From the IMG/VR virus record IMGVR_UViG_2563366976_000005: 13,080 nucleotides of DNA; one strand, 5' to 3'. Shown in pieces: positions 12,098-13,080 of this stretch. A program made the translations under genes and the position numbers. Each line of letters begins with the position of its first letter. Position 1 is the first letter of the stretch. The notes below the pieces were generated by a model that did not search any database, was not told where the DNA came from, and saw only the letters and a program-made list of their open reading frames with translations. Source of the stretch: a virus. Lineage: Duplodnaviria > Heunggongvirae > Uroviricota > Caudoviricetes.

Positions 12098-12771
12098 AAA
12101 ACATCGCCGCACAGATGGTTAACTTTGACCGTGAGCAGATGCGCCGGATCGCCAACAACATGCCGGAACAGTACGACGAAAAGCCGCAGGTACAGCAGGT
12201 AGCGCGGATCATCAACGGTGTGTTCAGCCAGTTACTGGCAACTTTCCCGGCGAGCCTGGCTAACCGGGACCAGAACGAACTGAACGAAATCCGCCGCCAG
12301 TGGGTTCTGGCTTTCCGGGAAAACGGGATCACCACAATGGAACAGGTTAACGCAGGAATGCGCGTAGCCCGTCGGCAGAATCGACCATTCCTGCCATCAC
12401 CCGGGCAGTTTGTCGCCTGGTGCCGGGAAGAAGCATCCGTTACCGCCGGACTGCCAAACGCCAGCGAGCTGGTTGATATGGTTTACGAGTATTGCCGGAA
12501 GCGTGGCCTGTATCCGGACGCAGAGTCTTATCCATGGAAATCAAACGCGCACTACTGGTTGGTTACCAACCTGTACCAGAACATGCGGGCCAATGCGCTG
12601 ACTGACGCGGAATTACGGCGTAAAGCTGCCGATGAGCTGACCTGTATGACCGCGCGAATTAACCGTGGTGAGGCGATACCTGAACCAGTAAAACAACTTC
12701 CTGTCATGGGCGGTAGGCCTCTAAATCGTGCACAGGCTCTGGCGAAGATCGCAGAAATCAAAGCGAAGTGA
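12094..12771 (+). CDS. P: Replication protein P (lambda type), C-terminally truncated by the IS insertion (225 aa instead of 233); possibly inactivated
   Basis: MKNIAAQMVNFDREQMRRIANNMPEQYDEKPQVQQVA... matches lambda P as I remember it up to ...IAEIKAK; the stop codon TGA (12769-12771) is supplied by the first bases of the IS. Confidence 0.88.
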   Translation: MKNIAAQMVNFDREQMRRIANNMPEQYDEKPQVQQVARIINGVFSQLLATFPASLANRDQNELNEIRRQWVLAFRENGITTMEQVNAGMRVARRQNRPFLPSPGQFVAWCREEASVTAGLPNASELVDMVYEYCRKRGLYPDAESYPWKSNAHYWLVTNLYQNMRANALTDAELRRKAADELTCMTARINRGEAIPEPVKQLPVMGGRPLNRAQALAKIAEIKAK

Positions 12772-13080
12772 ACCGCCCCGGGAATCCTGGAGACTAAACT
12801 TCCTGAGAAAGAGGTAAACAGGATGACTAAAAATACTCGTTTTTCCCCTGAAGTCCGTCAACGGGCAGTCCGTATGGTTCTGGAAAGTCAGGGCGAATAT
12901 GACTCACAATGGGCGACAATTTGTTCCATTGCTCCAAAGATTGGCTGTACGCCGGAGACTCTGCGTGTCTGGGTTCGCCAGCATGAGCGGGATACCGGGG
13001 GCGGTGATGGAGGGCTCACCACCGCTGAACGTCAGCGTCTGAAAGAGCTGGAACGTGAAAATCGTGAACTGCGCCGCAGT
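12769..13080 (+). mobile_element. IS3-family insertion sequence (IS629/IS1203/IS3411-like), left end; continues past the window
   Basis: The element starts TGAACCGCCCCGGGAATCC (an IS3-family TG terminus) exactly where lambda-type P sequence stops; the orfA transposase N-terminus follows 54 bp later. Confidence 0.85.
12823..13080 (+). CDS. IS3-family transposase OrfA (HTH N-terminal part), partial at window end
   Basis: [51 protein letters not shown]...[14 protein letters not shown], the characteristic OrfA HTH plus leucine-zipper start of IS3-family elements; runs off the window in frame. Confidence 0.85.

Follow-up and report, generated by a model that had tools for sequence, protein, structure and literature searches.

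The window, that is, the whole stretch of 13,080 nucleotides analysed here (IMG/VR record IMGVR_UViG_2563366976_000005), begins within the chromosomal ybhC gene (1-1284, minus strand) and continues into the left arm of a lambda-like prophage, in which the integrase gene (1418-2488, minus strand) is followed by recombination genes. Further on lie the gene for an S24-type repressor (9448-10137, minus strand), a cro-like gene of the immunity region (10242-10472), a YdaT-like gene upstream of O (10542-11081), and the replication initiator gene O (11078-12097, plus strand; Pfam Phage_rep_O). The ORF list puts the start of P at 12094, just before the end of O at 12097, indicating that P directly follows O and that the stop of O overlaps its start. 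In the closed genome of strain 23CRST038 (NZ_AP045810.1; record L001), the right end of the prophage lies at ybhB-bioA, which is the classical lambda attachment site. The O sequence was intact in every copy compared. Although the DNA is identical, the annotated length of O varies between records, at 339 or 309 aa, and apparent damage to the gene in some copies proved to reflect nothing more than the start codon that annotators had chosen on identical sequences. The shorter form (start at ~11168, MANTAEIFNF...) resembles the start of lambda O and the longer one overlaps with the YdaT-like gene; translation probably begins at the internal ATG at ~11168.

The immunity region showed several further features. 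The positions of cro and cII are held by a YdaS-like gene (76 aa) and the YdaT-like gene (179 aa) between 10242 and 11081, which Pfam labels as a toxin pair, a layout that differs from the cro/cII arrangement of lambda. No N-like antiterminator gene was found in 8358-8840 or 10137-10242. Operator-like repeats were observed on the left (8637-8683) and on the right (10171-10211). A leader of ~270 nt, running from the presumed pL to kil (8151-8357), contains no ORF of at least 40 aa and is 96-98% identical in the isolated, viable E. coli phages PhiR26_1, 4A7, Lambda_4C10, and Perceval. The leader had no Rfam match, and its RNA fold was not more stable than those of shuffled sequences (z = -0.26); the Rfam scan of the window likewise gave no match at the gathering thresholds. 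Between the repressor gene and the left operators, in the position of rexAB in lambda, there is a lipoprotein gene (126 aa, annotated as SEN1984/BamE-like; 8808-9218, minus strand) with a clear hairpin-plus-T terminator, which is likely an accessory gene expressed in the lysogen (a 'moron'). The prophage also bears a homologue of the DNA polymerase III theta subunit (~2981-3262, minus strand; 4888-5169 of L001); in both sister genomes, the annotation lists it as a pseudogene that contains an internal stop codon.

The truncated replication gene P, herein called P', occupies 12094-12771 on the plus strand and consists of 225 codons plus TGA, without codons 226-233 (FGLKGATV) of the 233. Its ORF translation ends in ...LAKIAEIKAK, i.e. 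...NRAQALAKIAEIKAK, followed by the stop. P' matched the Pfam family Phage_lambda_P (PF06992) over residues 39-198 with 208 bits (cut-off 26), and it aligned to lambda P of PDB 8V9T over residues 1-225 of 233 with an E value of 7.6e-146. F226, G227, and L228 are absent, and the C-terminal lasso helix (211-227) with its aromatic-Gly-Leu motif is incomplete; P' is a truncated member of the lambda P-type helicase loaders rather than a full one. Other C-terminal variants of the same P occur in public assemblies (the cluster with P0006, P0010, and P0011): one of 240 aa with a different tail (...FGLKGGKALYKKISK), one of 228 aa, and one of 221 aa.

From 12769 to the last base of the window, the sequence (TGAACCGCCCCGGGAATCCTGGAGACTAAAC...) is the left 312 bp of a 1310 bp IS629 element on the plus strand, and the window ends inside the element. 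This part was identical at 311 of 312 positions to the annotated IS629 of an Stx2a phage record (LC567824), and the full copy of 23CRST038 (14676-15985 of L001; 1310 bp) was identical to it at 1307 of 1310. The left terminal inverted repeat (12769-12793, plus strand) starts with TG (TGAACCGCCCCGGG...) and is 100% identical to that of the IS629 copies in Stx phage records. It is the only terminal repeat that falls within the window; the right end, ...CCCGGGGCGGTTCA, was read from L001 and from the source scaffold (KB732669.1 of assembly GCA_000351465.1; record L011), and is the same in both. When the left repeat is compared with the right end in reverse complement, 14 of the first 14 positions and 23 of 25 overall agree, with the TG start and CA end. 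Downstream of a Shine-Dalgarno-like AAAGAGG (12809-12815), the 5' part of orfA (12823-13080, plus strand) covers 86 of 108 codons, is co-oriented with P, and matched Pfam HTH_Tnp_1 (E 7e-13). The sister copy in 23CRST038 is complete, with OrfA (HTH_Tnp_1), OrfB (rve/HTH_21, the integrase core), and the ALIL frameshift pseudoknot (RF01497, 120 bits), where RefSeq annotates a programmed frameshift. The IS copy is 99.9-100% identical to many copies at other loci. For IS629, a target duplication of 3-4 bp has been reported, and the element resides mostly in prophages, which hold 62% of the O157 copies (PMC3271280).

Comparison of filled and empty sites defined the insertion at the level of the nucleotide. 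The stop TGA of P' (12769-12771) is formed by the first three bases of the IS629 left end; the T at 12769 can be assigned either to P (TTC) or to the IS, and the TGA of the IS is in frame. Since IS3-family ends start with TG and an A comes next, an in-frame TGA arises directly after Lys225. The left AAG of the duplication lies at 12766-12768 on the plus strand and is codon K225 of P. In both 23CRST038 and the source scaffold, the filled site reads ...GCGAAG, IS, AAGTTCGG, with the right terminus of the IS (...GGGGCGGTTCA) followed by AAG TTC GGA..., which in 23CRST038 continues as AAG TTC GGA CTG AAA GGA GCA ACT GTA TGA. GB089 and many others carry a P of 233 residues, 100% identical to the window up to base 12769, and the uninterrupted site of GB089 reads ...ATCAAAGCGAAG TTC GGA CTG AAA GGA GCA ACT GTA TAA, with exactly 8 codons after K225. 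The presence of AAG on both sides of the IS, as against a single AAG in the empty site, indicates a simple insertion with a 3-bp duplication. Behind the IS, the FGLKGATV codons come first, then ren, and then the nin region.

These results bear on the original prediction, which had been made from the window alone. It had placed an IS3-family element in the 3' end of P and taken the stop codon after ...IAEIKAK from the terminus of the element; both were borne out, the element being specifically IS629 and the stop the in-frame TGA of its first bases. The last 8 codons, which it regarded as removed, are indeed cut off from P but are not deleted, having been displaced 1310 bp onward behind the IS. 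The predicted separation of the ren/nin region by the IS was confirmed in 23CRST038 and in the source scaffold. Sequence beyond the window could have shown that P continues intact; what it revealed was the right end of the IS, the second AAG of the 3-bp duplication, and the displaced P tail.

Taken as a whole, the locus is very probably best explained by the insertion of a 1310-bp IS629 at codon 225/226 of P, with duplication of AAG and a P(1-225) product. By this mechanism, the IS3-family element IS629 transposed by ordinary cut/copy-and-paste into codon 225/226, duplicating AAG and landing in the same orientation as P. Its end places a TGA right after Lys225, giving the product P(1-225), and the FGLKGATV codons, an already frameshifted ren, and the nin-Q region now lie 1.3 kb further from pR.

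The date of the insertion was approached through a sister lysogen. Strain MS 196-1 (record L006) contains the same prophage at the same ybhC/ybhB site, in the ybhJ-ybhC-int context, with an intact P. Its prophage is 99.95% identical to that of the window over 14.7 kb up to the insertion point and at least 99.9% identical beyond it. Since P is unbroken in this strain although the prophage and its attachment site are the same, the insertion most likely took place after lysogeny, as judged from the sequence comparison, in line with the earlier dating of the IS as younger than lysogenisation. It is unlikely that the intact site of the sister arose by precise excision of the IS rather than never having been hit. 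In MS 196-1, an IS629 is instead located in rusA (18209-19518 of L006) with the duplication CTC, which shows that the same lysogen lineage took independent IS629 hits in different prophage genes. The simplest reading is a lysogen lineage whose IS629 copies later jumped into different prophage genes.

The same nucleotide of P was found interrupted in other prophages. Strain 61_150228 (record L003) contains a different prophage, located at icd, with an IS at the identical P position, in the identical orientation, and with the AAG duplication. Its P allele differs from that of the window at 23 of 675 bases. Its IS belongs to the IS1203-type subtype, is separated by 52 differences from the window-type copy, and shows 100% identity to O157 copies and to copies at a large number of unrelated loci. 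When the empty site of this P allele was reconstructed, it matched many O157:H7 genomes at 100% over 600 bp. In a viral-contig entry (L008), the left junction and the orientation are again the same, with a P allele and an IS629 subtype that are each a third kind; this IS has 59-67 differences from the other two subtypes and is 100% identical to O145/O103 copies. On the right side of L008, the IS end abuts an HNH endonuclease gene (6579-6760) without a target duplication, presumably because everything from ren to the lysis region was lost in an IS-mediated deletion or rearrangement. SNPs that distinguish the P alleles are located 4 and 10 bp from the junction, and those that mark the IS subtypes are at IS bases 14 and 33. 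Because there is no shared tract for recombination and each IS copy matches copies elsewhere, the comparison points to at least three independent hits of IS629 subtypes at the nucleotide of P codon 225. With two other subtypes having apparently entered other P alleles at this nucleotide, the site looks like a preferred IS629 target.

The surroundings of the site were considered in the same way. In contig L116, a fourth IS629 lies 15 bp upstream in the opposite orientation; the 221-aa P mentioned above ends in ...AKIAE and may correspond to this insertion. Further IS629-type copies lie 149-451 bp downstream in several genomes, either within ren or immediately beyond it, and one of them was verified, with the duplication GTC. 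Insertion tolerance in a dispensable stretch can explain such a regional cluster, but not the identity at the nucleotide level. Same-site recurrence is not the norm for the element, since no two of 127 IS629 left junctions from viral contigs share a site with diverged flanks. No common duplication or target motif was detected, the six IS629-type sites having AAG, AAG, none, GTC, CTGG, and CTC, respectively. IS911, another IS3-family element, undergoes targeted insertion next to sequences that resemble its own inverted repeats. It shares with the P site a reproducible insertion point and orientation. However, mimicry of the inverted repeats was rejected as an account of the hot spot: when either 25-bp IS end was aligned without gaps to the 80-bp target, the best match was no better than that to random prophage 80-mers, leaving an IS911-type mechanism unsupported here.

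Two explanations that would do away with the insertion events described above were weighed. A mis-join at a repeat in the draft scaffold could have produced the P-IS junction, considering that KB732669.1 has a gap of 1375 N inside the IS that starts right after the last base of the window and is the reason why the window ends there. The probability of such an artefact is negligible. The closed genome of 23CRST038 has only 2 mismatches to the window in 13080 bases and contains the same junction, the full IS, and the right junction; the source scaffold, which was identical to the window over the part compared (about the last 4 kb of the window), resumes after the gap with the right end of the IS plus AAGTTCG; and identical left junctions are present in independent isolate and metagenome assemblies. 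Alternatively, a single old P::IS629 insertion might have spread by recombination among lambdoid prophages, with gene conversion later making the interior of the IS uniform with the local subtype. The mosaic, recombining nature of these prophages, the similar divergence of the P alleles (3.4-4.9%) and the IS copies (4.0-5.1%), and the clearly rearranged right end of L008 would all fit such a history. Nevertheless, we consider it very improbable: the window and L003 alleles both have uninterrupted sisters with 100% identical flanks, the IS copies are 100%, 100%, and 99.9% identical to many copies at unrelated loci, and allele- and subtype-specific SNPs crowd within 4-14 bp of the junction with no tract in common. 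Independent insertion thus remains our reading of the three junctions.

The allele of the window itself is rare. Its exact junction was present in 2 of 5426 complete E. coli genomes, and the assembly index has 85 blocks with the exact 225-aa protein, which the cluster count puts on 43 contigs; contigs with the 225-aa P mostly break inside the IS. The junction was detected in none of 50,697 phage records and matched none of the metagenome contigs scanned. The only match among species-representative genomes, in a Desulfobacterales MAG, was dismissed as a chance match because that MAG has no similarity to the window. The P::IS629 junction of the window is a minor clonal allele.

Transcription beyond P probably changes little. 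The IS genes run in the direction of pR transcription, and translation restarts 52 nt past the stop of P'. A crude consensus scan of the IS revealed no convincing same-strand terminator; the one weak plus-strand match, inside orfB, was not above shuffle expectation. Judging from the co-oriented, translated IS genes and the lack of a convincing intrinsic terminator, read-through from pR to Q probably continues much as before. The next gene, ren, is already frameshifted in relatives without the IS. In 23CRST038, the head, tail, and lysis genes look complete, except for the side-tail-fibre gene.

The consequence for P itself can be judged against the structure of DnaB with lambda P at 2.66 Å, in which residues 193-233 form the C-terminal 'lasso' with a lasso helix at 211-227 (PMC12661323). 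Phe226 packs against Met301 and Leu305 of DnaB, and the other named lasso contacts are A215, K218, I219, and I222; order extends over residues 211-232 already in the early B6P6 complex, and the lasso is probably the first element of P that binds DnaB stably (PMC12661323). P' retains domains I-III, 15 of the 17 lasso-helix residues, and four of the five named lasso contacts, and it loses Phe226-Gly227-Leu228 and the basic tail. We aligned 20 sequences, namely P', the full-length sister allele, and 18 homologues from Citrobacter, Enterobacter, Klebsiella, Salmonella, and other genera (63-80% identity). In this alignment, position 226 was always Phe, His, or Tyr, Gly227 and Leu228 were conserved in at least 90% of the sequences, and no full-length homologue ended at 225. 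This conservation indicates that the tip of the lasso is under constraint and makes a weakened loader the best guess. From the conserved motif and the DnaB contact, it is plausible that P' is a weakened rather than a dead helicase loader. In the literature on P, a protein with a 66-aa C-terminal tag stays functional (PMC3640518), suggesting that the extreme C-terminus tolerates some change and that P' could be fully active; apart from this tag, the only related alteration found there was an N-terminal deletion (residues 9-86), and no report on 226-233 was found.

Full activity is thus one of the readings to be set beside a weakened loader. If the insertion were functionally neutral, P(1-225) would load DnaB normally, the IS would be read through, and the prophage would be fully inducible; in that case, an infectious phage might even have brought P::IS629 with it before lysogeny. 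P' retains the greater part of the lasso helix and every other DnaB or P-P interface, the tag on P is tolerated, and the IS has no clear terminator; moreover, ren was a pseudogene before the insertion, the prophage of 23CRST038 has otherwise complete head and tail genes, and the allele persists across the 85 blocks of the assembly index. We regard neutrality as quite possible, though short of probable, given that the aromatic-Gly-Leu motif is conserved in the 18 homologues from other genera, none of which ends at 225, and that Phe226 is a named DnaB contact. In addition, the junction is absent from the phage records, and the sister lysogen with an intact P argues that the IS arrived in the chromosome. 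At the other extreme, the insertion may kill P: a lasso without Phe226-Leu228 could not hold the DH-LH site of DnaB, helicase loading and replication would fail, and the prophage would be a domesticated remnant, favoured as non-lethal because P is toxic to the host. The proposed role of the lasso as the first stable DnaB-binding element, the conservation of the motif, the recovery of P::IS2 among laboratory-selected survivors of prophage induction (PMC4926192), and the repeated hits at one site, which selection would fit, are consistent with this reading. It is nonetheless unlikely, since A215, K218, I219, and I222 remain within a very large total P-DnaB interface. Selection for the loss of P could, furthermore, be satisfied by an insertion anywhere in O or P, and it therefore does not explain the identity at the nucleotide level. 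A weakened P also leaves room for a tentative and somewhat doubtful extension, in which AAG at codon 225 would be a genuine IS629 target and an attenuated P would lower both its toxicity and the replication of the prophage, making the insertion a recurrent, semi-programmed form of prophage taming.

The event is of a known kind, i.e., routine prophage decay by a well-known IS that is common in E. coli, and public annotation already calls both genes. The IS629/IS1203 elements in the prophages of O157:H7 (Rump et al. 2011, PMC3271280) have the same 1310 bp, TG...CA ends, orfA/orfB frameshift, and 3-4-bp duplication; the prophage habitat is common to both, and three subtypes differing by ~4-5% were catalogued there, as here. 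Unlike in that catalogue, the host is not O157 and the prophage is located at att-lambda. The same study concluded that IS629 has no sequence-based target, whereas here three subtypes occur at one nucleotide of P in the same orientation. The lambda P::IS2 allele (ilr566a; Hayes et al. 2016, PMC4926192) is likewise an interruption of a lambda-type P gene in a prophage by an IS3-family element, and it was a replication-defective laboratory survivor, IS insertion being a normal route to the loss of P. However, that IS2 interrupts the body of P, to the right of lambda bp 39690, and gives a laboratory-selected null, whereas only the last 8 codons are lost here. Compared with lambda P in its complex with DnaB (PDB 8V9T and related, PMC12661323), P' aligns over 1-225 with few substitutions and all four domains recognisable, but it ends at Lys225 inside the lasso helix, without Phe226 and the ordered tail to 232/233.

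What is mildly new is the recurrence at the same nucleotide together with a truncation that removes a structurally defined DnaB contact. A natural P allele without the lasso tip, which cryo-EM places on the DH-LH nexus of DnaB, offers a ready-made in vivo test of the importance of this tip. The recurrence with three subtypes suggests cryptic target preferences of IS629 and calls for caution when IS629 sites serve as phylogenetic markers of pathogenic E. coli, since two strains may share a site without having inherited it from a common ancestor.

Further IS629 copies were observed in these prophages. In the right arm of the 23CRST038 prophage, the side-tail-fibre gene is broken by an IS2 with a nested IS629 (18041-21464 of record L009), which constitutes the second IS lesion of this prophage. 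Three IS629 left junctions were found in the exo/bet genes of related prophages (contigs L103, L080, and L099, corresponding to positions 8698, 8705, and 9145 of L007, respectively); two of them are just 7 bp apart, and they may represent another local IS629 cluster.
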